A stretch of 64,000 nucleotides of DNA, taken from a bacterium (GTDB lineage Bacteria > UBA8248 > JACPRG01 > G963555815). The stretch is from NCBI GenBank assembly GCA_965261595.1, contig CBDHDG010000006.1, positions 1,024,001 to 1,088,000 on the forward strand, written 5' to 3'. The position numbers and the translations under genes were made by a program. This document shows, piece after piece, positions 23,611 through 49,304 of the stretch (its first letter is position 1; the number at the start of each line of letters is the position of its first letter). A model generated the notes under the pieces. It worked only from the letters and a program-made list of their open reading frames with translations, was not told where the DNA came from and searched no databases.

Positions 23611-23664
23611 CTTATTCTCCTTGATGACTCGCCATAACGAACTGAACGCTGAGCACTCGCTTTT

Positions 23665-23945: not shown

Positions 23946-24001
23946 CACCTGCTCGCGTCGCAATCGGTTGGCCGGATAGGCCGATCATACGGCCGTCAGG
24001 T

Positions 24002-25552
24002 TCAGGCGATGGCATCAGCGAACACCTCGCGGTAAATCGTTTCAATCCGCGCGACCTCGTCATCGGTCAGCGCGGCAAATTCCTTTTCCTGGCCGCGCTG
24101 GGAAAGTCTACCGCCATTCTGGTGCAGGAATCGGAACAGAAGATCATACAGCCTCTCCGGCATATCGATCATCAGGTTCAGTTCCCTGCGAAATGCGTCG
24201 TACCGCTTCAGGAATGAGGCTTCTCCCGGCAGGTCGTGTTCGATGGTCTGCTGTACGCATCCATACAGAAATTCGGTGTGCGGCGTCGCATCGAAGAATC
24301 GGTAAAAATCGTCTGTATCATTCAACACCCGGACGTTGCCGCCATTCGTCGGCTCCCAGTCCACAACCGGCAGCAGTCGCCGTGAATAGTCTTCGAGCAC
24401 GAGGCGGTAGTCATCGATCCGTTCCAGAATGGCCGCTGATACAGGAAAGACGACGCCGGGCGGGTTGAAGCCCCGCTGGGCCAGGACATGGTGGACCAGA
24501 TAGCGGTGCAGCCGGCCGTTTCCGTCCTCGAAAGGGTGGATATAGACAAAGCCGAATGCGAGAACCGACGCCGCCACGACTGGATCGAGCTGTTGCGCGG
24601 CCTGCTGGTCGAAAGCGATCATGCCCTCTACGAGTCGGGTCAGATGTTCCGGTCTGGCGCTGATATGGCCTGGTATCGGCATGCCCGATTCGCGGTCTCG
24701 TTCGCCGACGAAACCGCCCTCGTTCCGCAGACCGAGATGGACGAACCGGGCATCGCCGATCACGATGCGCTGCAGGCGCAGCAGTTCGTCAAGACCGATC
24801 GGTTGTCGGCCGGCCTGGCCGATGGCGCGGCCCCACCGCTGGATGCGGTCCTGCGGCGGATATTCACCCTCAATGACGAAGCTGGATTTGGAATCTTTCA
24901 GCAACAGGAAGGCTGCCGTGCGCGCCAGGAGGTCGCGCGGGACTGCTGCAACGGCATCTTGTGCGCGCAGGTGCAACTCCATGGCGATGAAACGCTCCAG
25001 CGCCTCGGTGCGGAACACCAACGGACAGAAATCCGGCGTGCCTGGCAGGTTGTTCTTTACCCGGTGTCGTGACGATGTTTCCGAGCGAGCCGCATATTGC
25101 AGGTCCGGATCGACGATTTGCGCATAGGCTCCGCGATCGGAGTTCGGCAGATCGAGCCGCGTCCCGGTCAGCCATTCATAGAGGAACCAGATGCGTCTGG
25201 CGTAGGCGCCCGTCGGCCTGGTCTTGACGATGTTTTCGATGGGCGCGGGGCCGCTCGCGGCAAACAGGCGTTTGAGGACAGAGAGGTGAAGCCCCTCGTG
25301 CTTCAGCGCGAAGGTGAGATGGCCTTCAAGGCTCGCATTCGGTGTATAGCGAGGCGAATAGATGCGCCAGCCACCATCCTCGATGCGCCTGTGCCGCTCA
25401 CCCGTGGCGCTCAGAACACGAGGGAGCGGCACACGCAGACCATAGGTCCCGATAAGCGCGGCGTATCCGGCCGGGGTGGCTATCACTGGAAGCCGCCGTT
25501 CCTGAAAAACGGTAACCAGGCCTGAAAAACGATTCTGATCAGGGGCGTTCAT
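24002..25552 (-). CDS. Fic family protein
   Basis: Canonical HPFEDGNGRLHR motif; 516 aa. Confidence 0.92.
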   Translation of the reverse strand: MNAPDQNRFSGLVTVFQERRLPVIATPAGYAALIGTYGLRVPLPRVLSATGERHRRIEDGGWRIYSPRYTPNASLEGHLTFALKHEGLHLSVLKRLFAASGPAPIENIVKTRPTGAYARRIWFLYEWLTGTRLDLPNSDRGAYAQIVDPDLQYAARSETSSRHRVKNNLPGTPDFCPLVFRTEALERFIAMELHLRAQDAVAAVPRDLLARTAAFLLLKDSKSSFVIEGEYPPQDRIQRWGRAIGQAGRQPIGLDELLRLQRIVIGDARFVHLGLRNEGGFVGERDRESGMPIPGHISARPEHLTRLVEGMIAFDQQAAQQLDPVVAASVLAFGFVYIHPFEDGNGRLHRYLVHHVLAQRGFNPPGVVFPVSAAILERIDDYRLVLEDYSRRLLPVVDWEPTNGGNVRVLNDTDDFYRFFDATPHTEFLYGCVQQTIEHDLPGEASFLKRYDAFRRELNLMIDMPERLYDLLFRFLHQNGGRLSQRGQEKEFAALTDDEVARIETIYREVFADAIA

Positions 25553-25880
25553 TTTAAAACTGTTTCCTATCCGGCGCAGGTCGGACTAGTCGTCCTGTCC
25601 ATGAAAAACGATACTTATCTATGAATATTGATAACATATACGGGATTAAATGAAAAACTATTATTTCTTGGGCCGGAATTACACGCAGTCCGCTCCAGGG
25701 CGACTGCCTGGCGAAGACGCGCGTCAACAAGGAGGTGTTGCTCCCCCATGACTATCCGGCGCGGCGAAGCAACTCCCCGACATCGATCCACCACTTACTG
25801 CATCATCCGGCTTGTTACACGGCCGAGCACCGGCGCGCCCGGCTGTCATCCGCGGTTCGCCGCTCAACACGCAAAGCCGC

Positions 25881-27158
25881 TCACGGACTGTTCTCTGCGC
25901 GAGGAGTGATGTCTTGCCCGACCGCGTGGGATCCTGTCCGGGCCTGTGCCGCGTATTGCCCGAAAGCATGCCTCCAGTCTTCGCCCAGAATGTCGGTCGC
26001 GATGCTGTCCGCGACCCGCACCGCCGCCTCGTGCACCGAATCACGCGCGAGATGCGCGTAGCGCGCCGTGGTCTCGACCTGCGTGTGGCCAAGGAGCTTT
26101 CCGATCATCGGGAGAGACTCGCCCAGCGCCAGGGGCCTGGACGCGTAGCTGTGCCTGCAGTCGTGGATACGCATGTCCGTGAGTCCCGCGCGCTCGCAGA
26201 CGATCTCCCAGGGGTCGTTCAGGTTGCGCATCGGCCTGCCCTTGACCTTGCCCGGAATGACGAACGGATTATCTTGAACGCGCGGGATAGCCGCCAGCAC
26301 CCCGGCGGCTTCCGGCGAGAGCGGGATCCTCCGCGGGCCGGTCTTGGTGTCAGGCAATCTGAGCTCGTTCGCCTCGAGGTCCACCTCGTCCCAGCGAAGC
26401 GAGAGGATCTCGTTCTTCCGGCATCCGGTCAGGAGAAGCAGGCGGATAGCCGCCACCGCGTGAACCGAAACCCCCTTGCAGGTCTCCGCCTCGTCCAGCA
26501 CCCGGCCGAGACGCCGGAACTCCTCCCCGGTCAGGAACCGGTCGCGGGCGCGCTCACGGTATTTGACCACCAGCCGGCACGGGTTGGCGGCCTCGGGGAT
26601 CAGCCCCCGGTCCCCGGCCGCGTTGTATATCCGCGAGAGCACGTCCACCACGCGGTTCGCCATGAACGGCGTCTCCCGGAGCTTGTGGTGCAACCCGCTC
26701 ACATGGGCGCGTTCGACCGCAAGCGCGGGCATTTTGCCGAGTGCGGGCAGGATGTGTTTCCGGACGGCCTGGCCGTACATCTCCGCCGTCTTCGGCTTGC
26801 ACCGCACCGCGACGTGTTCTTCGAGATACGCCCGGGCAAGCTCCGCCACCGTCGGTCCACCGGCCAGCCTGGCCGACATGGGTTCGGGGACCGGCTCCTC
26901 GCCCGCCTTGATCCGCGCGATGATAAGCGCCGCCCGCCTGCGCGCCTCCTCGGCCGTAACGACGCCGTGGCGTCCCACCGTCACCCGCTTCGCCGCCCGG
27001 CCGCCCGCGCGGGTCTGCACCACGTAGTACTTGCTCCCCGACGGATAGACCCGTACCCCGAAACCGCTCAGTTCGCTGTCCCAGAACACCGTGTCCTTCT
27101 CGACCTGAAGCGCCTCTACCGTGCGCCTCGAGATCGTCTTCGTCTCAAACCTCGCCAT
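25881..27158 (-). CDS. Tyrosine recombinase/integrase with N-terminal arm-binding (DUF4102) domain
   Basis: WDSELSGFGVRVYPSG; TGCRKNEI, HDCRH, LLGH..TTARY catalytic residues. Confidence 0.93.
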   Translation of the reverse strand: MARFETKTISRRTVEALQVEKDTVFWDSELSGFGVRVYPSGSKYYVVQTRAGGRAAKRVTVGRHGVVTAEEARRRAALIIARIKAGEEPVPEPMSARLAGGPTVAELARAYLEEHVAVRCKPKTAEMYGQAVRKHILPALGKMPALAVERAHVSGLHHKLRETPFMANRVVDVLSRIYNAAGDRGLIPEAANPCRLVVKYRERARDRFLTGEEFRRLGRVLDEAETCKGVSVHAVAAIRLLLLTGCRKNEILSLRWDEVDLEANELRLPDTKTGPRRIPLSPEAAGVLAAIPRVQDNPFVIPGKVKGRPMRNLNDPWEIVCERAGLTDMRIHDCRHSYASRPLALGESLPMIGKLLGHTQVETTARYAHLARDSVHEAAVRVADSIATDILGEDWRHAFGQYAAQARTGSHAVGQDITPRAENSP

Positions 27159-27170
27159 ACCCCTTCTCCC

Positions 27171-27251
27171 TTACGCGCCGCCGTTCAGAACGTCCGCCCC
27201 GATGCTGCCGCCGACCTTCGCGGCGGACGCCTTCTCCGTATCACGCGCGAG
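27171..27251 (-). pseudogene. C-terminal tail of a second, upstream tyrosine integrase
   Basis: LARDTEKASAAKVGGSIGADVLNGGA* parallels LARDSVHEAAVRVADSIATDILG of the intact integrase; cut by IS3. Confidence 0.7.
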
Positions 27252-27256
27252 TGGAG

Positions 27257-28345
27257 TTACCCCGTTTCAGTGGACAGTTTAGGGCTGTCGTCCCCAGCCC
27301 TGAGGTGGGCGACAGCCGGTGGACGTACAGTCTTCTCCCTATCCGATAGATAGGGTGCCCCCGGGGGGTATGTCTTGACCTTTGGCTCGCTGCTCCGGGA
27401 AGCACCGGGGACGGCTCGAGTCGGACGATGAGCGTTGCGCACTGCACGTGGCGTTTCCTTCGCCGCGGACCGTTCGAAGTCGTTGGGGCTGAGGTAACCC
27501 AGGGCCGAATGACGACGGCGTGGGTTGTACCAGCCTTCGATGAATTGGAAGATCGCCAGGCGCGCTTCGGCCTGGGTACGGAACGAGCGCCGGTCGATGA
27601 GCTCGCACTCCAGCGTGGCAAAGAAGCTCTCGGCCATGGCGTTGTCGAAGCAATCCCCGGCCGACCCGGTCGAGGGAACCACCCCCATCTCCCGGCACCG
27701 CCTGCCGAAGGCGAGCGAAGTGTACTGCGATCCCCTGTCGGAGTGATGCACGACCCCGTCGGGGCGGCGCTGTCCCAACGCCATGTTCAGCGCCCCGAGC
27801 ACCAGTTCGGTGCGAAGATGGTGGGTCATGGACCATCCCACCACCCGGCGGCTGAACACGTCGAGCACGATGGCCAGGTACACGAACCCCGTCCAGGTCG
27901 GCACGTAGGTCACGTCGGCCACCCAAAGCCGATCCGGCGCATCGGCCTGGAACTGGCGTTCGACCCGGTCCGGGACCACACAATGGCTCTGGTCCACGCG
28001 CGTAGTGCGCATGCCTCGGCGTCGGCTCACCCCGGCCAAGCCTGCCTCGCGCATCAGACGAGCCACCCGATTGCGGCTCACCCGGCAGCCGCCGGCCATC
28101 AGCTCGGCATGGACCCGAGGCGCCCCGTAGGTGCCACCAGATACCTCGTGGATGGCCCGGATCGTGCCCCGCAACGCCTCCTCGCGCTTCGCACGAAGAG
28201 AACGCCCACGGCTTCGCCACGCGTAGTATCCGCTGGGGGAGACACCCAGCCGACGGCACATCGTGGCCACCCGATGGCAGGCCTGATTCGCCTTCACGAG
28301 CTCGAAGACTTCGCCCGGACCGAGCCGGTCTCCCGAGCGAACCAA
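27257..28345 (-). CDS. IS3 transposase OrfB
   Basis: WVADVTY, HHSDRGSQY, DNAMAESFF. Confidence 0.9.
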   Translation of the reverse strand: MVRSGDRLGPGEVFELVKANQACHRVATMCRRLGVSPSGYYAWRSRGRSLRAKREEALRGTIRAIHEVSGGTYGAPRVHAELMAGGCRVSRNRVARLMREAGLAGVSRRRGMRTTRVDQSHCVVPDRVERQFQADAPDRLWVADVTYVPTWTGFVYLAIVLDVFSRRVVGWSMTHHLRTELVLGALNMALGQRRPDGVVHHSDRGSQYTSLAFGRRCREMGVVPSTGSAGDCFDNAMAESFFATLECELIDRRSFRTQAEARLAIFQFIEGWYNPRRRHSALGYLSPNDFERSAAKETPRAVRNAHRPTRAVPGASRSSEPKVKTYPPGAPYLSDREKTVRPPAVAHLRAGDDSPKLSTETG

Positions 28346-28608
28346 GCCGTAGCTTTTGCCAGTATCTCGCGTTCTTCGCGAAGCTGACGATTCTCCCGAC
28401 GAAGCCGCCGTAGCTCCTCGAGCTCTGAGCTTGTCAGACCGTCCTCACGACGGCCCTCGTCGCGGTCGGCCTGGCGCACCCAGTTGCGAATCGCCAAAGC
28501 GGAACACTCGAACTCCCGGGCCAGCTCCCCGGGCGTACGGCCCGAGCGAACCAACTCGACCATCTGGCGCCGGTACTCCGGCGCGTAGGGCGAATGAGTC
28601 TTTCGCAT
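28294..28608 (-). CDS. IS3 transposase OrfA
   Basis: [37 protein letters not shown]. Confidence 0.9.
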   Translation of the reverse strand: MRKTHSPYAPEYRRQMVELVRSGRTPGELAREFECSALAIRNWVRQADRDEGRREDGLTSSELEELRRLRRENRQLREEREILAKATAWFARETGSVRAKSSSS

Positions 28609-28662
28609 CTGAACACCTCCTGCGCACAGTCTGAAGGTGTCCACGAAAACGGGTCAACTCCA

Positions 28663-28822
28663 CCGATCCGTCCGGCCGCGCACCGTGCAGTTGAAAGCCT
28701 TGTTTCGCCAAATCAATGCCGATGATGTTCACTTGTTCCATGGACGCTTCCTCCTTCAGGGGTTGAACACGACACCACCTTGCCACAGCGTGATGCCGTC
28801 GGGAGGGGCGTCCACCCCATCG
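28663..28822 (-). pseudogene. IS110/IS1111 left end and first 27 codons of the transposase
   Basis: MEQVNIIGIDLAKQGFQLHG (ATG 28741); GGACGCCCCTCC / GGAGGAAGCGTCC inverted motif of IS1111-type left ends. Confidence 0.8.
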
Positions 28823-29559
28823 ATACGGGTACCGCAGGATCACGGCGATGCTTCGCCTTAGAGGGGTGGAAGGTGAACCCCAAGCGCGTGGAAAGGCTTT
28901 GGAGACAGGAGGGGCTGAAGGTCCCGTCTAGACAGCCGAAACGAAGGAGACTGTGGCTCCATGACGGCTGTTGCGTACGCCTGAGACCGACTCATCGGAA
29001 CCATGTCTGGAGCTATGACTTCATGCATGAGCGCACCCAAGAAGGGAGGGCTTTCCGGCTGTTAACCATTTTGGATGAGCACAGCCTTTGAATGTTGTTC
29101 CATTGATGCCCCAAGGCAGATGAATCACCAGGATGTGCTGGAGCGGTTGGCAGAGCTGTTTGTGGGCCGGGGCGTCCCTGAATGCCTCCGGTCAGATAAC
29201 GGATCGGAGTTCACGGCCAGGGTGGTCAGGGACTGGCTCAAGGCGGTTGGCGTGAGGACGTTGTACATCGAGCCAGGGAGTCCCTGGGAGAACGGATATG
29301 TGGAGAGTTTCAATGGGAAGCTGAGGGATGAGCTCCTGGACGTGGAGGTGTTTGAGACGCTGAAGGAAGCCCGGGTGCTGGTGGAGAGGTGGAGGCGGGA
29401 GTACAACCAGCGACGGCCTCACAGCGCCTTGGCCTACCGGCCGCCTGCGCCAGAGGCCAGATTCCCAAGAACCCAAGCCCTGGCGCCGGTCCCCCGGGGT
29501 GGACTTCAAATGGTCCCGTGTCTAACGTAACAGGTGGTCTCGTTGGGGGGGGCAGGTCA
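28823..29559 (+). pseudogene. IS3-family (IS407 group) orfB remnant, frameshifted, with right end
   Basis: YGYRRIT, VWSYDF, RSDNGSEF, IEPGSPWENGYVESFNGKLRDE; ends GGGGCAGGTCA. Confidence 0.85.
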
Positions 29560-29840
29560 TCGAACCCGGTAGTCCCTGGGACAATGGGTATTGTGAGAGT
29601 TTCAATGGGAAGCTGAGAGACGAATGCCTGAATGGTGAGGTTTCTATTCGGGAGGAGGCCCAGATTGTGATTGAGCCATGGCGGGAGGAATATAACACCC
29701 GGAAACCCCACTCGGCGCTGAATGATAGGCCCCCGGCGCCGGAGGTCTGCACTCCATTCCTTCCCCCCAAACCGGTTTCACAGCCTCAGGCTGTCATGTA
29801 AACTCTCTCCCAAAAAGTGGTACAAAAACTCGTCTGGTCA
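29560..29840 (+). pseudogene. Second IS407-group 3' remnant
   Basis: EPGSPWDNGYCESFNGKLRDECLN..YNTRKPHSAL; ends CTGGTCA. Confidence 0.8.
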
Positions 29841-30061
29841 GCCTGACGGAACGCTTACCGGAACAGTTACGGGGCATCCAGGGGGCGGCCGTCATTCGCA
29901 TCCATGTCACGCCGCAATAGTGCGCAAATCCGATTGCGAAATGCTTACGCAACTCTCTGAAGCGCAATCGGGTGCGCTGCGAAAAATAAAGCTAGCATTT
30001 TATTGTATAATGAAAATATCGGAGATACAACCGTAGGGCAGTTCATATATGTTCCACAAGA

Positions 30062-30115
30062 GTGGCCCTTGTGCAACGCGCGCATGACCTCGAAGCCCTT
30101 GATCGTCCCGTAGGC
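30062..30115 (-). pseudogene. Tiny IS6-family transposase C-terminal fragment
   Basis: AYGTIKGFEVMRALHKG resembles IS26/IS6100 AYATIKG.EVMRALRKG. Confidence 0.65.
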
Positions 30116-30124
30116 CAGAATCAT

Positions 30125-30787
30125 CTAGTCGTCCCCGGTGGCCCCAAACTCGGGGTGCAGGGGACCCACCAGCAGACCGTCCTCCTTATTGAAGAACATC
30201 CGTCGATTCGCCCGCTTGGCGAGCAGCCGGGGCCGGTCGATCACCGTGCTCTCGATCTGCACGATGACCGCGCCGATAAGCGCTACTACTAGGTTGGAAT
30301 CTCTGTCACTCGAGTTCCATACGACCCTCACGTCGCCGGTCCAGAGTGTCGTGCCCGAAGGGACGTCGACCAGCCGTCCCTTGACCGACACCACCGTCTT
30401 GGAATTCACCACTTGGTATTTCTGACCCCAGTCGACGATCGTGATGTACAGAACCGCATCCGCACCGATGATCTCGTCGATCTTGTTCAACGAGACGCCG
30501 TGCATCTCGCCGGCGGTCGGTAGCCCGTTGTCCTTCATGTATTCCTCAACGACCGACACCGGAAAAATGTAGTACCCGCGTTCGGCAACAGGCTTCGTGA
30601 CTGTGGTCAGGTAGGAGTAGGGTGCACTCACCTCCACCGATTCGTTGAGCGGCGGCAGCACGAGAATCGAACGCGGCATGTGTTCCCGGTAGGTGGAGTA
30701 GTCGTACGACGGCTCAGATACGGGTCCCGTGCACCCCATCACTCCCGACAGCAGGAACCCCGAGAAGAGGATGCGTTTCGAGCTCAC
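30125..30787 (-). CDS. DUF799 / GNA1162-family lipoprotein
   Basis: Lipobox VMGC; PRSILVLPPLNES, AERGYYIFPV, GADAVLYITI. Confidence 0.85.
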   Translation of the reverse strand: MSSKRILFSGFLLSGVMGCTGPVSEPSYDYSTYREHMPRSILVLPPLNESVEVSAPYSYLTTVTKPVAERGYYIFPVSVVEEYMKDNGLPTAGEMHGVSLNKIDEIIGADAVLYITIVDWGQKYQVVNSKTVVSVKGRLVDVPSGTTLWTGDVRVVWNSSDRDSNLVVALIGAVIVQIESTVIDRPRLLAKRANRRMFFNKEDGLLVGPLHPEFGATGDD

Positions 30788-31149
30788 TGCGATTTCCGCC
30801 TTATGCGGGAGAGGAGGCGGTTGATGAAGGTTGCCGATTCCGGAAAGAGCTCCCGCTCGCGCTCGAAGTGAGCACGTGCAGATTCCAAGTCGCCCAATTT
30901 GTAGTGGAGAAAGCCCAGATGGGCGTGGACACCCGGTGGCACCCGCTTGTCCTCGGCCTGGGTGCGTGCGATGTCTTCGCCGAGGCGTTGCGCCTGAGTG
31001 GCCGGATCGGCCTCACCCGGCTTGGCATACGAGAGGTACATGAGGTCCTCGTAGATGCCCCACCGGTACACGGTGGTTTCTGGTGGTGATGCGCACCCCG
31101 CGAGAACCACGATGCATGCGCTGACGCCCACGAGGAGACGACGGCTCAT
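30784..31149 (-). CDS. DUF4810 lipoprotein
   Basis: Lipobox LAGC; Y.WG.Y, VPPGVHAHLGFL, ERELFPES; coupled by ATGA/GTGA overlaps. Confidence 0.85.
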   Translation of the reverse strand: MSRRLLVGVSACIVVLAGCASPPETTVYRWGIYEDLMYLSYAKPGEADPATQAQRLGEDIARTQAEDKRVPPGVHAHLGFLHYKLGDLESARAHFERERELFPESATFINRLLSRIRRKSQ

Positions 31150-31868
31150 CGTTCCGGAGTCGGCGACCACTCGCCTCGTTGGAGTCCATCGACCAGATTG
31201 TCCACGGCCTCGACAATCGCCAAGTTCAACACCTTGCCGTTCAGCGTGGAATCGTAGCCTGCTGTGCCTCCGAAGCCAGCAATCTCTCGGTTGGAGAGCG
31301 CGAACTCGCCGGCCCCCTGAGATGAGTACACGACTTCCGAGGTGCGCACGTCAACGACGTTGAGCGCGACCTTCGCATAGGCAACCTGTTGCTTGCCTGC
31401 CCCCAGAATTCCGAATAGTTGGCGGTCGCCCGTAGTCTTGCGGCCGAATTCGGTGACGTCGCCGGTGATGGCGACCTGTGCGCCCTTCAGCGCCTGTTGC
31501 GTCCCGCCGATATCCGCCTCTTGCTGAAGCACGGCCATGTTGTCCCGGTCGACCACGACGAAGCGTCCAGTCTGCTGGAGATGAGTCTTGAGGATGGTCT
31601 TCGCCTGGCTGCCCAGCCGGTCGCCCCCTTCGGAGAAAATCCCCTGCATATAGGTCGAGCGATTCTCGAAGTTCCCGATCACGAGAGTATGGCGAGACCC
31701 GCCAAAGGCGGTATCCGCCGAACGGGTAGTCTGCGCCTCAAGTGTTCTGGACGACTCGGTCGCGCAGCCTGAGAGGTGCATCCAGAGAGCCGCCGCGAGG
31801 ATGCTCGCGGCGGTCCGCGAAACACGGAGCCGATTGGCCTTGCACCATATAAGTATATTCACTAACAT
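31146..31868 (-). CDS. CsgG/HfaB-family lipoprotein
   Basis: Lipobox LSGC; FENRS, LQQTGRFVVVDR, ITGDVTEFG, GGTAGYDSTLNGKVL; start uncertain. Confidence 0.85.
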   Translation of the reverse strand: MLVNILIWCKANRLRVSRTAASILAAALWMHLSGCATESSRTLEAQTTRSADTAFGGSRHTLVIGNFENRSTYMQGIFSEGGDRLGSQAKTILKTHLQQTGRFVVVDRDNMAVLQQEADIGGTQQALKGAQVAITGDVTEFGRKTTGDRQLFGILGAGKQQVAYAKVALNVVDVRTSEVVYSSQGAGEFALSNREIAGFGGTAGYDSTLNGKVLNLAIVEAVDNLVDGLQRGEWSPTPER

Positions 31869-32028
31869 CCTCGTCCCGTTATGTCCGCAGGATCCTCGCT
31901 TGCCTTCACCGACGCCCAGAACTCGCGCTGCGACAGTACTCTGTATCAGGCCCTTGAGCCCATCGGTGTACGATATACATAAGACTTATAGTGTATTTGA
32001 ATACCTGAAAAAAAAACAATCGGAGTCT

Positions 32029-32335
32029 TGTCCCATGAGACATGAGCCTGAACGGTAGGAGCGAATCCCACGAGAGATGAGCCTGAACAAGGGGATTTTG
32101 GGATCATCGGAGGATGATCTTGAAACTGGACATCGGACGGGTGCGGACCATAGACGAGGTTCGCGATTTCATGGCCGGCAGCGACGCGGTTGACTTTCAC
32201 CTCACCGACCGGCGGGGGGCGTACGACTTCGTGACGCGGACCCTGAGGCGGCTGAACTACGCCGGGTCGACCAAGGCGCGGACAAGGGGGTCGTGCGTCG
32301 CTTTGTGGCGAAGGTCACGGGGTTGTCGCGGGCAT
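32029..32335 (+). pseudogene. Left end and N-terminus of an IS481/ISNCY-like integrase-core transposase
   Basis: Repeated ATGAGCCTGAAC at the end; RTIDEVRDFMAG..LRRLNY then KGVVRRFVAKVTGLSR in a shifted frame. Confidence 0.55.
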
Positions 32336-32460
32336 CCAATGAGTGACAAGCAGAACTGTTGCATTCGGAAGCCCGTCTTTGGGCGAGGGACGGGTGTTCT
32401 CATTTCCCATTCTCGTGCTGCGCTTGCGCGAGAGAAACGGAATCCCGTCACGTTGCGGAG

Positions 32461-32690
32461 TGGAGTTGGCCCCATTTCGGTGGACACTTTCGCACTGTGC
32501 GCAGGAGGTGTTCAGATGACAAAGACTCATTCCCCTTACGCGCCGGCGTAACGGCGCCAGATGGTCGAGCGGGTCCGCGCGGGGCGCAAGCCCGGGGAGC
32601 TGGCTCGGGAGTTCGAGTGTTCCGCTTCGGCGATTCGCAACTGGGTGCGCCAGGCCGACCGCGACGAAGGCCGTCGTGAGGACGGTCTGT
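32461..32690 (+). pseudogene. IS3-family left end and orfA fragment (relative of 27252-28662)
   Basis: TGGAGTTGGCCCCATTTCGGTGGACA; MTKTHSPYAPA* premature stop; truncated. Confidence 0.8.
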
Positions 32691-32916
32691 GGAGTTCGGG
32701 GCGTGGAGGAGCTCGGGCGGATCGTTTTTCGTGAATGGAGCCGTGCGGCGGGCCGCGGTGCGGGGATGTCGGAATCAGGGTCCCGGGAGCGATAATCGAA
32801 AAGCGTAACCGTTCGGCCGGGCCGTGATGGGCACAGCGTTGGAAGCATCGTCTACATTGGATGGAATCTTCCCAAGACACTGGTAACGCGATTCGGCATG
32901 TGGTATTCATGTCGAC

Positions 32917-35045
32917 ATGACGATTCGCGCAGAAGTTGCTCAAGCGGAACTTTCGTTGGTCGAGAGGCCAGATGTCCGATGGCCTCTTCCCCCCAAGACG
33001 TCCTCATGCAGGGAGTCGGACTGGCGTTCGCTGTTCAAGCGCGAACGGGCGCGGGCGGAGGCGCGCTGCGAGGAGTTGCGGTGGGCGGAGGTGGATTCCC
33101 GCGCCCGGGCGGGTTCGCTGAAGTGGCGACTCGACGCCTGCCGGAGCAAGCTGAAGGCGGCCGTGGAGGAGACGAAGGAAGTCCGCCGAGCGGCGCAGGA
33201 CGCCCTTTCCTTGCAGGCGGAAGTGGCGCGGCTGGAGAAGCGCCTTTCGGAAGCCAGGGTCAAGTCGGCCGGGGGCCGCTCGGGCGCGTCGCCGTCGGGG
33301 GAGGCCGCCCGGCTGCGCAAGGAGGCGGTCCGGCTGACCAGGGAAGTCGCCCGGCTGGAGGACCGGCTGGCCCGGGAGACGCAGGCGTCGGAGACCGACA
33401 AGGAGACCATCAGGTGGCAGGGCCGCGAGGTCATTGGGCTCCATGCGGAGTTGAGGCGATTGCGCGACCAGGCGGAGGCGGTCAAGTCGTTGTCCGGGGA
33501 GGTCTACCGTCTGGGGGTCGCCCTGGAAGTCGCCGGATCCGCGAAGGAGCGGCTGAAGGCCCGGCTTTTGCGCGCGAGCGAGGCGGCGCGGTCGAGGTCG
33601 CCGTCGCGTGAGGACGCTGAACTGCGCAAGGCCCTGGGGAGGTCGCGCCGCCAGAAGACGGCGCTCAGGTCCCTATCCAGGGAGAACGCCCGGCTACGCA
33701 AAGCCGTGAATGCATCGCAGAGCCGGAACGAGACGCTGGAAGCGCAGCTTGCGAAGCTTCGTGCGAGCGGGGCGGTGCTGTCGAAGGCGCTGTTCGGGCG
33801 CAGGAGCGAACAGCAGGAGCGAACAGCAGGAGAGGCCGCGCTCTGAGCCGCCGGGCATGGCCGCACCCTGCGGCCCGCGCTCGAGGAGAGGACGGAAGAG
33901 CGCAATCCGCCGGCCGAGGCATGCGTCTGTGGCCGATGCGGGAAGCCCTACGTGGCCAACGGCGCCGAGGTCTCCACCATCGTCGAGATCGAAGTCTCGG
34001 CTCACAAACGCGTCATCCGCCGTCCGCGATGGCGCCGGAGGTGCGACTGCGCGTCCTCACCCACCGAAGTGTCGGCGCTCCCGGCACCGCGCCTGTTCGC
34101 AGGCACGCCCTGCGGGACCAGCGTGTGGGCGCGGTTCCTGTTCGAGCGCTATGCCTGCTTCCGTCCCCTGCGCCGGGTCGCCTCGTGGCTGTCCGCCATG
34201 GTGATGAGACTACCTGGCGCGTGCAGTCGCTTCGCGAGGAGAGCCGCTCGAGCCGGGCTTGGCTGTGGACCTCGGTCAGCGAGGACGCGGTCTACTTCCA
34301 CGTTGACCCCTCGCGCGGTGCGGAGGTCGCGAGGAAGCTGTTCGGAACGGCCGGCCTCCATACGGTCATCGTCTGCGACCGCTACAGCGCCTACAAGAAG
34401 ATGGCGCGCATTCCCGGGGGCCTGGTGACCCTCGCTTGGTGCTGGAGTCATATGCGGAGAGATTTTATCCACTGCGCGGCCGGCGAGGTGCGGCTGACGC
34501 GGTGGTGCCGGAGATGGATCGAGCGGATCGCACTGATCTATCGCCTGAACGAGGCTCGCCTGGCCCATTACGACCCCGGCCGCGACCGGCAGAGCGCGGC
34601 GTTCGACGCGGCGCAGGCCGCGCTGAAGAAAGCGCTCGACGGCCTGTTCGCGGAAGCCGGGCGGGAGTTGGCCTCCTTGCCGGAGAACGCGCGCGAGGGC
34701 AAGGCGTTGCGCTCGCTGCTGAACCATCGCGAGGGCTTGAGCGTCTTCGTCGACCGCCCGCAGACGCCGATGGACAACAACGCCGCCGAGCGCGCGCTGA
34801 GGGGACCGGTGATCGGGAGACGGCTCTCGTTCGGCTCCGACCGCGAGACCGGCGCCCGGTTCACGGCGATGATGTACTCGGTCCTCGGTACCCTCGCGCC
34901 GGGCGGCATCGACCCTCTCCGCTGGCTGGAGGCATGGCTGGCGGCATGTGCGGAGAGAGGCGGCCGGGCGCCTGAGGACCTCTCGCCGTGGCTGCCCTGG
35001 TCGATGGGCGCGGAGCGCAGGCGCGCCCTCATGGCGCCGGGATGA
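32917..35045 (+). pseudogene. IS66 TnpC transposase with long coiled-coil N-terminus, disrupted
   Basis: LFGRRSEQ, Zn finger CGRCG, HGDETTW, CDRYSAY, CWSHMRRDF, DNNAAERALR; 13-bp tandem duplication near 33800, further frameshifts and an internal deletion near 34200. Confidence 0.85.
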
Positions 35046-35049
35046 CGTC

Positions 35050-35922
35050 ATGATCGAGTGCCGCTATTACGGACGCGACTTCACCACCGAAGAGATGACG
35101 CTCCTGCGCGCGCTGATCGCCGGTCCTCCGGCGCTGAACCGCCACGCGCTCTCGAAGGAGTTCTGCCGGCGCATCGGCTGGCGCAAGCCCGACGGCGGGC
35201 TCAAGGACATGATGGCCAGGGTGACCATGCTGGCCATGCACAAAGACGGCCTGATCGCCCTGCCGCCGCCGAAGTGGCGGCAGAACCGGCCCGGGCTGAT
35301 CGTCTTCGGTCCGGAGACCGAACCACCACCGGTCCCGGCGCCGGCCACCCTGGAGGAGGTCCGCCCGCTCGACATGCAGATCGTCGTGCGCGGCACCGCC
35401 GGGGGCAAGCGGTGGAACGAGTTCGTCGCCCGTTACCACTATCTCGGCTACAGGACCCTCGTCGGCGCCCAGATGCGCTACGCCGTCCACGACCGCAACG
35501 GTTGCCCCATCGCCATGCTCGGCTTCTCCACCGCCGCGTGGAAGCTGGCCTCTCGAGACCGCTTCATCGGTTGGACGCCCGGGCTGCGCGAGAAGAACCT
35601 CCCCCTCGTGGTCGACAACCCGAGGTTCCTCATCCTGCCCTGGATCAAGATCCCCAACCTCGGTTCGCACATCCTCGCCATCGTCCGCCGTCGCCTGCCC
35701 CAGGACTGGGCCGAGCGCTACAACACCACCCCCGTGCTCATCGAAACCTTCGTCGAGACCCCCCGTTACACCGGCGCCGTCTACAGGGCATCGGGATGGA
35801 CCCACGTCGGAACCACCCAGGGACGCGGACGCTACGACAGGTACACGAGACGCGCCCAACCGAAAAAGGATATCTGGCTCCGCCCCCTCAAAAAAAATTG
35901 GAAACGAACCCTCAACAGCTAA
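35050..35922 (+). CDS. DUF4338 domain protein (DruA-like)
   Basis: YYGRDFT, YHYLGY..LVGAQMRY, RDRFIGW, RFLILPW..NLGSH, ETFVE..G.VYRASGW..G.TQGRG. Confidence 0.88.
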   Translation: MIECRYYGRDFTTEEMTLLRALIAGPPALNRHALSKEFCRRIGWRKPDGGLKDMMARVTMLAMHKDGLIALPPPKWRQNRPGLIVFGPETEPPPVPAPATLEEVRPLDMQIVVRGTAGGKRWNEFVARYHYLGYRTLVGAQMRYAVHDRNGCPIAMLGFSTAAWKLASRDRFIGWTPGLREKNLPLVVDNPRFLILPWIKIPNLGSHILAIVRRRLPQDWAERYNTTPVLIETFVETPRYTGAVYRASGWTHVGTTQGRGRYDRYTRRAQPKKDIWLRPLKKNWKRTLNS

Positions 35923-36126
35923 ATTACCCCCCCATCACGGCCCGTCCGAACGGTTACCGACAGGGACTCGCCGAGATGCGCAGGAGTTTTAACGAATCCG
36001 CTTTCATTTTGATTACGGACTGCAGAAGGCAGGTTCCGAATGAGATTGGAAATTATGTATATTCTCAATAATATCAATAGTATAATAGGATCTCACGGCT
36101 GGAAAGAACGGCTTTACGGATGAATC

Positions 36127-36532
36127 AAGATGCAAAACGTCGTGAAGAAGGTCCGAAAGCGCAACCAGGAGGCGGTGGTCTCGGGCGCACAAAGGATCTA
36201 CGAGGCCCACAGCCGCCGGGCGGCCATCGCCGCCTTTTGGCGATGGGCCAAGCAGTGGCGAGGGCGGGAGCCCAAGGCGGTGGCGTGCATCGAGAGCGAC
36301 CTCGAGACGTTGTTGGCCCACTTCCAAGAGCCCCCCGCCCTTCGGGTCACCCTGCGCACGATAAACCCCATTGAGCGGGTCTTTCGGGAGGTGAGACGAA
36401 GAACCAGACCCATGACCGTCATGAACAACAACGAGTCCCTGGAACGCGTCGCCTACAGCGTGTTCCACCGCATTAACACCTAGTGGGAGACAAACCCTCT
36501 CTGCACTTCTACACAAAACTCGTGACATTACC
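36127..36532 (+). pseudogene. IS256-family transposase C-terminus and right IR
   Basis: KMQNV..LRTINPIERVFREVRRRTR; IR CACTTCTACACAAAACTCGTGACATTACC. Confidence 0.85.
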
Positions 36533-36693
36533 CTGGGTGACGTGGGGCCCGCAATCCATCACGGCGGAGGCCGCGGACGGATCCGCTTTGCGCCGCGGGG
36601 CGCGACGAATTCGGTGGGCCGCCGATGCGGGAAGAATGTTCTCGGCGGGGCCGGGGCCGGGGGGGGGGGGGGGGGAGGCCCTCAGCGGTCTCT

Positions 36694-38091
36694 TCAGTGT
36701 TTCACGGGCCAGAAAATCTTACCGGGGTTCATGACGTTGCGGGGATCGAAGACCGCCTTGATTTGCTTTTGAAGCTCGATGATCTCGGGAGATTGCTCCA
36801 GGGGAAGAAACTCCGACTTGGTGATGCCGATGCCGTGCTCTCCCGAAAGCGTCCCATTCATCTCGACCGTCGCGACGAAGATGTCCCGGACCGCCTCCAG
36901 GGCGCTGGCCATCCGCGCGGGATCGCGTTCATCCGTCATTACATTGACGTGGAGGTTTCCGTCGCCCGCATGGCCGAAGGTGATGATCAGGTGGCCGCGC
37001 CGCTCGCCGATTTCCTGGAGCTTTCTCATCATTTCAGGGATGCGTGAGCGGGGGACGGTGATGTCTTCGTTGATTTTCGTGGGCTCGATTTGGAGGATGG
37101 CGTTGGCCAGACTGGTGCGCACCGCCATCAATGTCGCCGCTTCCTCGTCGTTTTCGGCGATGCGGATGGGATCGGCCCCCTTTTCGCGGCAGATGTCCCG
37201 AATGCGGTCGAGCTGCGGCGAAATGGATTCTCGGGGGCCGTCCACCTGGATGAGCAGGAGGGCCCGCGAATCCACCGGCAGGCCGGCGTGGAGTTGATTC
37301 TCCGCCGCCCGGATGCACTGCTGGTCCAGGAACTCCAACATCGAGGGGATGATGCGGGAGGCGATGATCCGCGAGACCGTCTCGGTGGCGGCCGCCGGGT
37401 CGGGGAAGGCCGCCGTCATCGTCCCCGTGGCTTCGGGTTTCGGGATGAGGCGCAGGGTTATCTCGGTGATGACGCCGAGGGTCCCCTCCGAGCCTACGAG
37501 GAGCTTGGTGAGGTCGTAGCCGACGACGCCCTTCATCGTCCGGACGCCCGTGCGGATGCGGCCGAAGGCCGGCGTGACGGCTTCCAATCCGATGATGTAG
37601 TCTTTCGTCACGCCGTACTTCACCCCCCGGGGTCCGCCGGCGCACATGGCCGCGTTTCCGCCCAGCGTGCATACCGCCCTGCTGGCCGGGTCCGGGGGAT
37701 AGAAGAGTCCGAGCTTCTCGACCGCGGCGTGGAACTGTCCCGTGACCACGCCGGGCTCGACAACGGCCACGAGGTTGTCCGTGTCGATTTCCTTGATCCG
37801 GTTCATCGCCGTGAGGTCGAGAACGATCCCCTTCTTCACGGGAATCGCCCCGCCCGTGGTGCTGGTCCCGGCGCCGCGCGGCGTGATGGGGACCTGATGC
37901 TCATGGGCGAGAGCGACGATGGCCTCCACCTCATCGGCGGAGATGGCCCGCACAACGACGTCCGGCACGGACTCCGCCCGCTGCGTGCCGTCCCGGGCGT
38001 ACGTGATGCGCTCCTCGAGGGCTTCGAGGACGCGGTCGGCGGGGAGGATATCCCGCAACCGGGCGGGCAGGTTTTCGGTCATCGCCATCAT
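36694..38091 (-). CDS. FAD-linked oxidase, GlcD/D-lactate dehydrogenase family
   Basis: PRGAGTS..GG, YPPDPAS, GYDLTKLLVGSEGTLG, GHAGDGNLH, SGEHGIG, MNPGKIF. Confidence 0.93.
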   Translation of the reverse strand: MMAMTENLPARLRDILPADRVLEALEERITYARDGTQRAESVPDVVVRAISADEVEAIVALAHEHQVPITPRGAGTSTTGGAIPVKKGIVLDLTAMNRIKEIDTDNLVAVVEPGVVTGQFHAAVEKLGLFYPPDPASRAVCTLGGNAAMCAGGPRGVKYGVTKDYIIGLEAVTPAFGRIRTGVRTMKGVVGYDLTKLLVGSEGTLGVITEITLRLIPKPEATGTMTAAFPDPAAATETVSRIIASRIIPSMLEFLDQQCIRAAENQLHAGLPVDSRALLLIQVDGPRESISPQLDRIRDICREKGADPIRIAENDEEAATLMAVRTSLANAILQIEPTKINEDITVPRSRIPEMMRKLQEIGERRGHLIITFGHAGDGNLHVNVMTDERDPARMASALEAVRDIFVATVEMNGTLSGEHGIGITKSEFLPLEQSPEIIELQKQIKAVFDPRNVMNPGKIFWPVKH

Positions 38092-38205
38092 CCCCCTTCC
38101 CCCCCCCTACGCTATCGCCGGATCAATGATTCAACCCGGTTGGACATGTTCGACAATTCCCTCCCCCCCCCCCCCTCTTTCAACCGGGTCCGAAATCGAC
38201 AAACC

Positions 38206-38784
38206 TCAAGCATTCCCCGGGAGATCCATCTCCTTCCCGTTGATCGTGATGACGCTTTTCAGTGGAACGGCCGTCCGGACCATACTCTCGGCGAAGCACC
38301 CGCCTTTGGCGTTTCGGACGAGGAGGCGAAGCCTCTCTTCGGGCGCGTCCGATTCAATTTCGAATCGTGTGCGGACCTGTCTGCATCCGGATTGCACGTC
38401 GCCCCGCAGGACGGAGCCGCTGCGGAAGTATTCCATCTCCACCCGCACCCGGGCGCTCCGCAACTCGATCTTCATCATGGAAGCGAACCGCTTCACTTGG
38501 GTCAGGAGTCAGGCGCCGATTCCGCCGGCGATATAGGTCAGGGGTTGCGGGTGCTTTCCCTCCCCGCCGAGGATCGGAGGCTCATCCACGTAGAACATCT
38601 GGTCTCCCCCGATCAGCTCGGGATCATCCCCGTCCGTTCCCTCGCCCGGGTATTCGTCCTCATTTTTCAGGATCTTCTGGTGACCCACGACGGTGTGGAC
38701 CAGCGTCTCGCCGGCCTCGCAGTCGGCGACGACAAAAGCCTCCAGTACATCCCGCCGCCCGCCGCGAGAGGATTTCAAAGGCAT
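38206..38784 (-). CDS. OsmC-like protein, probable selenoprotein (UGA at 38509-38511)
   Basis: DEPPILGGEG..PQPLTYIAGGIGA-UGA-LLTQ runs in frame into ..NAKGGCFAE; GAAGCG-GTT-CGCTTC hairpin with its loop 20 nt after the UGA. Confidence 0.8.
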
Positions 38785-38829
38785 CCGCGCTCCCCTTTCC
38801 AAGAACAAACAGGTTTCCCGCCCGCGATC

Positions 38830-39907: not shown

Positions 39908-40114
39908 GAGCCATCCTCCCCACTTCTGTGAATTCCAAGGCGCCTCTTTTGCCGAGGCGGCCGGGCGCCAAGCGTTTCCCGTCGCCGTCCACCAGTCTAA
40001 CAGGCCGCGCCCAATCGCGAAACGCGGGGCGGAAGCGGGTCGTGCCCTCATTTGAAACTTTCTGTTAAAGTTGCCTCAGAGATAGCGACTCCACAAAACG
40101 GGGGAGGAAACACA

Positions 40115-40411
40115 ATAGCGGAAGAACGGAAAAAACAGTACGGGCAGTTAATCGCCAAGGCGTGGACAGACGAGGAGTTCGAGGCCAGGCTCAAAGCCGA
40201 TCCCAAGGCCGCGTTGAAGGAAGTGGGGATCGATGTTCCTGAGGGCCATGCGGTTCATGTACACGAAGCGGCCTCGGATGAGCACCACCTGGTCATACCC
40301 CCCAAACCCGCCGGTGAGCTCTCGGACGAGGACCTGGATAAGATGGCGGGGGGAGCGGCGGCTTACGACCGCCTTCAGCGATTGCCCTGCGGACCGTTTT
40401 ATTTCAAATGA
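40115..40411 (+). CDS. NHLP (nitrile hydratase-like leader) RiPP precursor peptide with ATA start
   Basis: LIAKAWTDEEFEARLKADPKAALKE.G..P, HLVIPPKP, ELSDEDLDKMAGG cleavage motif; core AAAYDRLQRLPCGPFYFK. Confidence 0.85.
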   Translation: MAEERKKQYGQLIAKAWTDEEFEARLKADPKAALKEVGIDVPEGHAVHVHEAASDEHHLVIPPKPAGELSDEDLDKMAGGAAAYDRLQRLPCGPFYFK

Positions 40412-40990: not shown

Positions 40991-41374
40991 ATGGAAGCCA
41001 TGGCGACAAAACCCAGAAAGGTCAGACAACGGGCGACGGTGAAAGTCTTTCGCTACGACTCCGAGAACAACCCGGAGCCCTACTACGACACCTACGATGT
41101 TCCATTCGACCCCCAGAACAGCGTCCTGCAGGTTTTGACCGATATTCGGGAGGAACACGACCCGACCCTGGCGGTGCGCGAATCCTGCTGGGTGGGGTGT
41201 TGTCTCATCTGCACGTACCGGGTCAACGGAAAATCAAAGGTCACTTGCCGCACGCGGATGGATCAGGAGATGGTGATCGAGCCCCTGAAAAAGGAGCGCG
41301 TCGTCCGGGACCTGATCCAGCTCGAGCGGATGGACGTGGAAAACCGTGATGACGATGTCGGCGGGGAGGAATAG
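40991..41374 (+). CDS. 2Fe-2S protein homologous to the SdhB/FrdB N-terminal domain only
   Basis: VFRYD, DPTLAVRESCWVGCCLIC-x11-C, IEPL..VVRDL; stops before the 4Fe-4S/3Fe-4S domain. Confidence 0.85.
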   Translation: MEAMATKPRKVRQRATVKVFRYDSENNPEPYYDTYDVPFDPQNSVLQVLTDIREEHDPTLAVRESCWVGCCLICTYRVNGKSKVTCRTRMDQEMVIEPLKKERVVRDLIQLERMDVENRDDDVGGEE

Positions 41375-46745: not shown

Positions 46746-47900
46746 TGGACCGCCCCTGGGTTATTGGACACTCGGGTGAGGGTATTCGACCTCATGCGGC
46801 CTCCGCAACTTGAGCGAGTTTTTCCTGCCTTGCCTGGGCCGGCGTTCGGTAGCCGTAGCCCTCGAGAATCCAATGATGGTTGTACAGGTTCTTGAACTCA
46901 AGCAGCGCCCACCGCAGTTCCTCTACGGTGGCGAAAGAGCGCACCCACAGGAGATTCTCCTTCAAGGTGCGGATAAACCACTCACAGTAGCCATTTCCCT
47001 CGGGCGCCCGCACGAAGCTGGGCGAACTGGTCATGCCCAGGTAGGCGATCTCCCGCTGAAAGTCATCGGACAGATAGGCGGGGCCGTGGTCGTGACGAAC
47101 TTTAAGCCCCTCGGCGACATCCGCCTCCAAGCCGGCGAAGCGCTCGGCGACCCCCTGCCGGATCGGCTCCAGGGCCTCGAAGCGGTTGCCGCTCTTGGCC
47201 GCATGGATCCCCACGCAGTCCACCGAGCAGTGATCCACCGCCACGAACACCGAGGCCATCCCCTCCTCGGTGGTCACCGTCGTCGTCATGTCCGTGCCCC
47301 ACATTCGGTCGGGCCGCTCGGTGCGGATGGTCCCGTTGTGGGCCTTGGGACCTCGGGGTTTGCCCACCCGGTGGGGGGCCTGAAGCCCCGCCTCCCGCAT
47401 CAGGCGACGCACCCGCTCCTTGCTGGTGCGGATGCCCGCGAAGCGCAGCCTCGCCCACACCTTGCGGTAGCCCTCGCCATGGAAGGGAGAGTCCTCCAGG
47501 ACCTGCCGGATGTGGCCGAGGAGTTCCGCATCGGTGCACGGGCCCACAGGGCCGCGCTTATTGGGCGTGGGGCGTTCATGAACGGGGACCGCCTCTCGCC
47601 GCCGTTGCGCGTAGACCGTGGAGCGCGCCAAGCCCCAAAGGGCGCACACCCGCTTCAGGCCGTAGGCTCTGCCCGTGGAGGTGAAGCGGGCCTGACTCAT
47701 CGCCTCCACCTCCTGCCGGCTAAAGGGCGGCCGGCCTCCAGGCGGTCGATCTTCTCCCGCAGGACCTCGCCCTCCATCGTGAGTTCGCCCACCTTGGCCT
47801 TGAGCCGGGCGTTCTCCTCGTCCCGCTCATCCGCCGGGCGGGCTTTGAGTGCCGCCTCGCCCCCGCGAAGGAACGCCTCGCGCCAGGCGGAAAGCCGAGC
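46746..47900 (-). mobile_element. IS3-family IS, copy 5, truncated within orfA by copy 6
   Basis: Right IR at 46746; sequence breaks at ...GCCGAGC directly into the copy 6 IR. Confidence 0.93.
46792..47709 (-). CDS. IS3 transposase OrfB, copy 5
   Basis: Intact DDE motifs. Confidence 0.88.
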   Translation of the reverse strand: MEAMSQARFTSTGRAYGLKRVCALWGLARSTVYAQRRREAVPVHERPTPNKRGPVGPCTDAELLGHIRQVLEDSPFHGEGYRKVWARLRFAGIRTSKERVRRLMREAGLQAPHRVGKPRGPKAHNGTIRTERPDRMWGTDMTTTVTTEEGMASVFVAVDHCSVDCVGIHAAKSGNRFEALEPIRQGVAERFAGLEADVAEGLKVRHDHGPAYLSDDFQREIAYLGMTSSPSFVRAPEGNGYCEWFIRTLKENLLWVRSFATVEELRWALLEFKNLYNHHWILEGYGYRTPAQARQEKLAQVAEAA

Positions 47901-47946
47901 TGGACCGCCCCTGGGTTATTGGACACTCGGGTGAGGGTATTCGACC

Positions 47947-48864
47947 TCATGCGGCCTCCGCAACTTGAGCGAGTTTTTCCTGCCTTGCCTGGGCCGGCGT
48001 TCGGTAGCCGTAGCCCTCGAGAATCCAATGATGGTTGTACAGGTTCTTGAACTCAAGCAGCGCCCACCGCAGTTCCTCTACGGTGGCGAAAGAGCGCACC
48101 CACAGGAGATTCTCCTTCAAGATGCGGATGAACCACTCACAGTAGCCATTTCCCTCGGGCGCCCGCACGAAGCTGGGCGAACTGGTCATGCCCAGGTAGG
48201 CGATCTCCCGCTGAAAGTCATCGGACAGATAGGCGGGGCCGTGGTCGTGACGAACTTTAAGCCCCTCGGCGACGTCCGCCTCCAAGCCGGCGAAGCGCTC
48301 GGCGACCCCCTGCCGGATCGGCTCCAGGGCCTCGAAGCGGTTGCCGCTCTTGGCCGCATGGATCCCCACGCAGTCCACCGAACAGTGATCCACCGCCACG
48401 AACACCGAGGCCATCCCCTCCTCGGTGGTCACCGTCGTCGTCATGTCCGTGCCCCACATTCGGTCGGGCCGCTCGGTGCGGATGGTCCCGTTGTGGGCCT
48501 TGGGACCTCGGGGTTTGCCCACCCGGTGGGGGGCCTGAAGCCCCGCCTCCCGCATCAGGCGACGCACCCGCTCCTTGCTGGTGCGGATGCCCGCGAAGCG
48601 CAGCCTCGCCCACACCTTGCGGTAGCCCTCGCCATGGAAGGGAGAGTCCTCCAGGACCTGCCGGATGTGACCGAGGAGTTCCGCATCGGTGCACGGGCCC
48701 ACAGGGCCGCGCTTATTGGGCGTGGGGCGTTCATGAACGGGGACCGCCTCTCGCCGCCGTTGCGCGTAGACCGTGGAGCGCGCCAAGCCCCAAAGGGCGC
48801 ACACCCGCTTCAGGCCGTAGGCTCTGCCCGTGGAGGTGAAGCGGGCCTGACTCATCGCCTCCAC
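47947..48864 (-). CDS. IS3 transposase OrfB, copy 6
   Basis: Intact DDE motifs. Confidence 0.9.
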   Translation of the reverse strand: MEAMSQARFTSTGRAYGLKRVCALWGLARSTVYAQRRREAVPVHERPTPNKRGPVGPCTDAELLGHIRQVLEDSPFHGEGYRKVWARLRFAGIRTSKERVRRLMREAGLQAPHRVGKPRGPKAHNGTIRTERPDRMWGTDMTTTVTTEEGMASVFVAVDHCSVDCVGIHAAKSGNRFEALEPIRQGVAERFAGLEADVAEGLKVRHDHGPAYLSDDFQREIAYLGMTSSPSFVRAPEGNGYCEWFIRILKENLLWVRSFATVEELRWALLEFKNLYNHHWILEGYGYRTPAQARQEKLAQVAEAA

Positions 48865-49238
48865 CTCCTGCCGGCTAAAGGGCGGCCGGCCTCCAGGCGG
48901 TCGATCTTCTCCCGCAGGACCTCGCCCTCCATCGTGAGTTCGCCCACCTTGGCCTTGAGCCGGGCGTTCTCCTCGGCCCGCTCATCCGCCGGGCGGGCTT
49001 TGAGCGCCGCCTCGCCCCCGCGAAGGAACGCCTCGCGCCAGGCGGAAAGCCGAGCCGCTGTCGTGCCCAACTCGCGGCAGAGCGTCTCCAGGCTCTCGCA
49101 CCGCAAAAGACGCAGGACCGCCTCCCGCTTGCGCTGGCAGGAGAACCGACCCCGCTCACTGCGATGCCCTGGGGCCTTGGCTCCGTTCGCCCTACGGGCG
49201 CCCTCCGCCAAAGCCCCCTCTTGCTTTTGTTCGTTCAT
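48852..49238 (-). CDS. IS3 transposase OrfA, copy 6
   Basis: G-to-C and D-to-A variants. Confidence 0.9.
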   Translation of the reverse strand: MNEQKQEGALAEGARRANGAKAPGHRSERGRFSCQRKREAVLRLLRCESLETLCRELGTTAARLSAWREAFLRGGEAALKARPADERAEENARLKAKVGELTMEGEVLREKIDRLEAGRPLAGRRWRR

Positions 49239-49304
49239 CGCGACACCCCTTTCTCCATGAATCATGGATCAATCGAGTGTCCAACAAAACCCTAGAGCGG
49301 GGGA

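Follow-up and report, generated by a model that had tools for sequence, protein, structure and literature searches.

The window, by which we mean the whole 64-kb stretch of bacterial DNA that was analysed, carries on its minus strand two ORFs, 38509-38808 (99 aa) and 38206-38496 (96 aa), which the preliminary description took for one OsmC-like gene read through a UGA codon. Translation bears this out, coordinates and frame included. Both ORFs lie in the same frame, which runs for 192 codons from 38784 to 38206 with a single internal TGA at 38511-38509 when TGA is translated as selenocysteine (Sec, U). In the read-through translation of 38808-38206, this codon stands in the context PQPLTYIAGGIGA-U-LLTQVKRF. 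Listing 38206-38808 as two ORFs is an annotation artefact, brought about by the recoded UGA. The features discussed below are:

38206..38784, minus strand: whole coding sequence of the predicted OsmC-like selenoprotein (translation with TGA as U, NF041052, PF02566, AlphaFold model)
38782..38800, minus strand: start ATG (38784-38782) with the Shine-Dalgarno-like sequence GGAAAGGGGAG (38800-38790), by direct reading
38602..38670, minus strand: acidic loop, residues 39-61 (LKNEDEYPGEGTDGDDPELIGGD), with low pLDDT, between N-terminal strands
38509..38511, minus strand: in-frame UGA, predicted Sec92, in the motif G-I-G-A-U-L-L-T (UxxT); relatives have TGA or Cys in the same column
38476..38499, minus strand: SECIS-type hairpin (fold, SECIS criteria, covariation, RNAalifold)
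38296..38298, minus strand: TGC codon of Cys163 (GGCFAE), the second conserved redox Cys, invariant in alignment A4 and aligned with solved structures
36694..38091, minus strand: GlcD-type FAD-linked oxidase, the downstream neighbour, outside the selenoprotein gene (Pfam FAD_binding_4, FAD-oxidase_C)

The start codon is likely the ATG at 38784, because GGAAAGGGGAG lies 5 nt upstream of it and the N-terminus that it gives agrees with that of the closest relative (locus L001). From this ATG the read-through product has the 192 aa proposed earlier, with U92 and three cysteines, C22, C134 and C163. The last of these, in NAKGGC163FAE, is the second Cys singled out in the preliminary description, and it is invariant in our alignment of 46 sequences (A4). 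The terminator of the gene, at 38208-38206, is likewise TGA.

We also scanned all six frames of the window for further in-frame TGA codons. This crude scan, which required at least 45 codons of coding-like composition on each side and so misses Sec codons near gene ends, returned a single site in the 64 kb, that at 38511-38509, and no other candidate. No stop codon is used more often in the window than TGA, which ends 23 of the 42 Pfam-supported ORFs, and this excludes its genome-wide reassignment (codes 4 or 25).

Codon 92 and the hairpin downstream of it

The preliminary description placed the UGA at the position of the catalytic Cys of OsmC/Ohr proteins, and proposed that homologues be aligned there for Cys or UGA. 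When 1.84 billion cluster representatives were searched in full with HMMER, 696 matched at E <=0.001, and the best 150 of these were classed by BLASTP against the query. Among these 150, Cys occupies column 92 of at least one domain in 113, Ser, Gly or Ala in seven, and Trp in none. The others are fragments: 26 are C-terminal pieces of 72-117 aa that start within 20 residues after column 92 (four of them at residue 93), one (P0008, 94 aa, 64% identical) is an N-terminal piece that ends exactly at residue 91, and three are fragments of other kinds. The fragments at column 92 are gene-caller output from UGA-containing relatives. In all, 27 of the best 150 representatives are cut at or just after this column, as had been foreseen for annotation pipelines.

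Related loci were collected, from one genome per species, with the pattern [ALQ][LV][VI]R[NL]AK[GRQ]GC, which was built on nine closer sequences and sits in the C-terminal half of the protein. The 39 confirmed loci hold 41 gene copies and come from MAGs labelled Nitrospinota, Tectomicrobia, Binatia, Betaproteobacteria, Acidimicrobiia, Myxococcota and unclassified bacteria. The column 92 codon is TGA in 40 of the 41 copies and TGT in one (L005), a proportion that describes the subclade and not the whole OsmC family, since the pattern was drawn from close relatives. In A4 the invariant columns are D67, E68, G74, U/C92, G123 and C163. Two Tectomicrobia loci, L017 (1262, 1868) and L019 (5082, 5670), account for the additional copies, each with two predicted Sec-containing OsmC-like genes in tandem and a hairpin for each gene. 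At a further locus, L039 (5217), the halves of the gene lie in different frames, and a single base, in a run of A directly after the hairpin, sets it apart from L012; this break is a frameshift or an assembly error.

In bacterial Sec decoding, a SECIS hairpin recruits SelB carrying Sec-tRNA(Sec). The stem-loop to which the preliminary description assigned this part, GAAGCG-GUU-CGCUUC, lies where it was described, at 38494-38480 on the minus strand. The G of the loop comes 21st after the UGA, which makes the spacing 20 nt; a lower extension (CAAG-U-...-CAUG) contains a bulged U. According to the legend of Fig. 2 in PMC13188914, a bacterial SECIS element has an apical loop of 3-9 nt, an upper stem of 4-16 bp, a G within the first two loop positions, a spacing of 16-37 nt from the UGA and an MFE of -7.5 kcal/mol or lower. 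Here, the apical loop is GUU, or GGUUC with a G/C closing pair (the N1-G-[G/U]-N-N2 pattern), the upper stem has 6 bp, a G stands in the first two loop positions, the spacing falls inside the published range, and the MFE is -7.8 kcal/mol. Stability alone is not significant (z -0.45; 60 of 200 shuffles fold as well). Since the folding energy is unremarkable, the case for a real hairpin rests on its conservation and covariation in relatives.

For this comparison we aligned the 48 nt from the UGA in the window and the 40 TGA-bearing copies, gap-free, leaving out L005, which has no UGA. Helix columns 18-23 with 27-32 form standard pairs in 91.9% of cells (77.4 +/- 1.5% in shuffles), both sides change at four of the six pairs (34 cells), and the covariation score is 0.373 (0.144 in shuffles); none of 500 shuffles reaches any of the three values, although kinship among the sequences, the coding nature of the region and the choice of a helix first read in the window may have inflated the counts. 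With the register shifted by 1-3 columns, pairing is at most 69% and covariation at most 0.122. RNAalifold, with the alignment as its sole input, returns the same helix (18-22 with 28-32). Some of the covarying columns couple the synonymous third position of codon 6 to the second position of codon 11 (Ser, His, Gln), a covariation for which protein constraint alone would be a poor explanation. The closest relative, L001, has the TGA and a hairpin identical to that of the window, and L005, the sole Cys-bearing relative among the 41 copies and thus one case, is without the helix. An Rfam scan of 38200-38800 at E <=10 returned no SECIS family, the hits being sroD, DnaX and ceN40 at chance level (E >5). 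Taken as a prediction from sequence, the hairpin fits the bacterial SECIS model and is both conserved and covarying, in agreement with the SECIS-type element suggested earlier just 3' of the UGA.

Readings of the internal UGA

We compared the gene with that of L001 (73% identical) on either side of the UGA. dN/dS is 0.17 downstream of the UGA (95 codons) and 0.09 upstream of it (76 codons), and the low downstream value indicates that this half is translated and under constraint, which argues against a pseudogene or two unrelated ORFs. A dead or dying gene, in which a Cys codon (TGC or TGT) had mutated to TGA, would require a change of one base, in surroundings rich in IS elements and gene fragments, and L039 offers a relative that looks frameshift-broken. 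We nevertheless hold this to be very unlikely. Besides the constraint just described, the same TGA recurs in nearly all related copies across several phyla, every invariant residue is kept after it, and the hairpin is preserved through compensatory changes.

The UGA might instead be read through as Cys or Trp, by near-cognate suppression or after loss of the Sec machinery. Cys is evidently functional at column 92, being the residue of 113 of the best 150 representatives, and we did not see Sec machinery in the 64-kb window: ARAGORN found no tRNA gene there, tRNA-Sec included, and a Pfam scan found no SelA, SelB or SelD among its 52 coding-like ORFs, absences that are uninformative in so short a piece of a genome. 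Around the 39 related loci, ARAGORN found three flanking tRNAs (two Leu, one Ser) and no tRNA-Sec. Against such a reading, general suppression is unlikely with TGA as the principal stop codon of the window, a conserved hairpin of SECIS type would be purposeless without SelB, and Trp stands at column 92 in no homologue among the best 150. We regard decoding as Cys or Trp as highly improbable.

That the third base of a Cys codon was misread or misassembled, the true residue being Cys92, has hardly any probability in our estimate. The long homopolymer runs and many repeats of the window can trouble assemblies, and a close relative, L005, does use TGT; but the TGA site lies outside any homopolymer, the codon is followed by the hairpin of TGA-bearing relatives that the TGT-bearing one lacks, and L001 has the same TGA with an identical hairpin. 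As for two separate genes that together make a split OsmC (a 91-aa N-terminal product and a C-terminal product from GTG or ATG), table-11 ORF calling yields exactly these two ORFs and databases contain such fragments, yet the probability is next to nil, as the start codons of the second ORF fall inside the central helix of the fold, the four codons between TGA and GTG (LLTQ) are conserved and contain the family motif, and no Shine-Dalgarno-like sequence is apparent in the 12 nt between TGA and GTG.

We therefore favour, with high confidence, a single 192-residue gene product of the OsmC/Ohr fold with Sec as its first conserved redox residue. By the same evidence from sequence, the organism very probably decodes selenocysteine. 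During translation, the hairpin 20 nt downstream of UGA-92 would recruit SelB with Sec-tRNA(Sec), and UGA-92 would then be decoded as Sec instead of stop, whereas the terminal UGA at 38208-38206, without such a hairpin, would bring about termination.

Family, fold and proposed chemistry

The OsmC-like identity given in the preliminary description is supported by profiles and by a structural model. NCBIfam NF041052, "OsmC-related (seleno)protein", matches at 145.6-145.8 bits (curated cut-off 95) over residues 63-183 only (profile positions 24-144 of 144), and it is also matched by all 46 aligned relatives. Pfam OsmC (PF02566) matches residues 82-184 when the read-through is taken in its longer form, with the TTG at 38808 as its first codon (4e-14; 53.3 bits against a gathering threshold of 27.5). 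We rejected identity as an Ohr orthologue, the Ohr equivalog NF052637 scoring 21.3 bits, far under its cut-off of 240.

An AlphaFold2 model, for which the 46-sequence alignment was the input, has a mean pLDDT of 87.1 and a pTM of 0.79, and the PDB matches listed for it all belong to the OsmC or Ohr family. U92 is modelled within a long central helix (81-103) and C163 where helices 149-162 and 164-170 meet. By sequence and profile alignment, U92 corresponds to the first conserved Cys in 3cje, 2opl, 1vla, 2onf and 9wo1, and C163 to the second Cys in 3cje, 1vla and 2onf. The two redox residues of the OsmC/Ohr superfamily, the second some 65-70 residues after the first, are thus both present as the A4-invariant U92 and C163, and the UxxT motif appears as U92-L-L-T95. 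At the level of sequence, the predicted protein has every character of the OsmC-like selenoprotein family.

The best PDB match of the model is 2opl (GSU2788 of Geobacter sulfurreducens; E 8e-11), which has the same fold over about 173 columns with a TM score of 0.67-0.70. Both 2opl and 3cje (Jann_2040) carry the first Cys in the same helix as U92; unlike the query, they have Cys for Sec, and their identity to it is about 17-20%. The second Cys of 3cje lies in the context K-G-C-F, whereas 2opl lacks a second Cys. The Ohr and OsmC proteins (Xylella Ohr, 1zb8/4xx2; E. coli OsmC, 1qwi; Thermotoga OsmC, 1vla) share the superfamily, the fold and two Cys on equivalent elements, but the sequence relation to the Ohr/OsmC reductases is weak, as the NF052637 score indicates, and the query falls in the COG1765/YhfA-type branch. 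This branch assignment follows tables in the literature (PMC1088965, PMC9312934).

The gene is real and its kind is already known. OsmC-like selenoproteins (COG1765/PF02566, with UxxT and a predicted SECIS) appear in the Sargasso Sea study of 2005 by Zhang, Fomenko and Gladyshev (PMC1088965), and the OsmC-like UxxT family is listed in the GOS study of 2008 (PMC2398784) and in reviews of 2022 (PMC9312934) and 2026 (PMC13188914). With a description from 2005 and an NCBI model, NF041052, the label of a "hidden" selenoprotein holds for the gene callers, which split relatives of this kind, and does not hold for the family. The parts of the selenoprotein literature of 2005, 2008, 2022 and 2026 available to us contain no biochemically characterised OsmC-like selenoprotein. 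Like the family of NF041052 and of Zhang and colleagues, the protein described here has a UGA at the first conserved Cys column, the UxxT motif and a second Cys, and the UGA is immediately followed by a SECIS-type hairpin whose small apical loop contains a G; the protein scores above the cut-off of the family model. It departs from the family in its divergent N-terminal strands, in DCE for DTE, and in an acidic loop of 20-odd residues. For the field, the gene adds one further member to a catalogued selenoprotein family. Any member, the one described here included, is a fair target for asking what a Sec-containing OsmC reduces, and why this clade prefers Sec, as it does in 40 of the 41 copies found.

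The chemistry that we propose, Sec/Cys peroxidase chemistry, is borrowed from OsmC and Ohr, and it applies to the Sec92/Cys163 protein by analogy only. Sec92, in the central helix, would attack a hydroperoxide or another oxidised substrate and become a selenenic acid. Cys163, presumed to be the resolving residue, would convert this selenenic acid to a selenenylsulfide, and a thiol reductant of the lipoyl or thioredoxin type might then regenerate the enzyme.

The acidic loop, the downstream oxidase and the surroundings of the gene

The preliminary description drew attention to an unusual acidic insert. Such a segment, at about residues 39-61, is indeed missing from most family members, which have a short turn instead in the 46-sequence alignment. 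As a structural element it is less distinct: the model places it, at low confidence (block pLDDT 57-66), as a loop that joins strands 29-38 and 62-67 in the N-terminal sheet, with no secondary structure except a 2-residue bridge. Neither is it peculiar to this protein, since its first part, KNEDEYPG, is identical in the two closest relatives, L001 and P0008, the remainder being variable. In A4, the protein also has a DCE motif, which contains Cys22, where the main group has DTE. The DCE and acidic-loop features are common to L001 and P0008 and, in part, to L002, L003, L005 and L010.

Downstream of the selenoprotein gene, the oxidase at 36694-38091 (minus strand) scores 462.5 bits with TIGR00387, under the cut-off of 567.9. 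The order of selenoprotein and oxidase genes is kept in L001, where the oxidase is 82% identical, and in none of the 38 other loci. When nine window neighbours were compared with the 39 loci, this GlcD-like gene in L001 was the sole one shared; SdhA-like matches in L011, L014 and L016 were short and weak. Upstream of the selenoprotein gene lie genes for a luciferase-domain protein and a CopD-like membrane protein, neither of which is found in any of the 39 loci.

The subclade is marked by a Cys-bearing DCE motif in the first strand, by the KNEDEYPG loop and, in two genomes, by the downstream GlcD-type oxidase gene. We consider it unlikely that the proteins of the subclade with L001 and P0008 form a dedicated Sec-dependent peroxidase or reductase that partners the GlcD-type oxidase, with the loop or Cys22 as a partner-docking or third redox element. 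Such an enzyme could, for example, remove peroxide arising from 2-hydroxy-acid oxidation. If this were true, the subclade would represent a functional variant of a kind not yet reported among OsmC-like selenoproteins.

Several other elements of the window were recorded. G/C homopolymer runs of 13-17 nt occur at 36659-36675, 38163-38175 and 55433-55445, where 1.3 ten-mers would be expected by chance. Two of the runs bracket the GlcD-like gene, and one of these separates it from the selenoprotein gene; the runs could be slippage-prone tracts or assembly trouble spots. An insertion sequence of about 1.4 kb, with two overlapping ORFs (a transposase HTH domain; HTH_21/rve_3 domains), is present in five full copies that are 99-100% identical: 3420-4829 (plus strand), 7116-8525 (minus), 8987-10390 (minus), 20973-22390 (plus) and 47887-49304 (minus). 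A partial copy of 1155 nt (46746-47900) abuts the last full one. These copies suggest very recent transposition of this element.

The selenoprotein gene lies just past the edge of a stretch rich in mobile elements, 19214-36483. This stretch contains a split IS1595 transposase (19214-20252), a Fic protein (24002-25552), a tyrosine integrase (25881-27158), IS3-type fragments (27257-29530), an IS66 transposase (33921-35045), a DruA-like (Druantia) protein (34948-35922) and a Mutator transposase fragment (36130-36483). Within the same interval, at 30125-31868 on the minus strand, adjacent CsgG-like, DUF4810 and GNA1162-like lipoprotein genes look like a conserved trio.

On the other side of the selenoprotein gene, 40052-40411 (plus strand) encodes a 119-aa RiPP precursor of the NHLP leader-peptide family (TIGR03793, 75.2 bits; cut-off 50.9), in which a Gly-Gly site precedes a Cys-containing tail of 18 residues; its neighbourhood showed no obvious maturase. 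A 127-aa SdhB-like ORF at 40991-41374 (plus strand) has the 2Fe-2S domain only and stands beside a full flavoprotein subunit. Farther along, a flavin-reductase ORF at 57499-57894 (minus strand) aligns, from the second residue on, only to positions 59-137 of a 153-position profile, indicating that it is N-terminally truncated.
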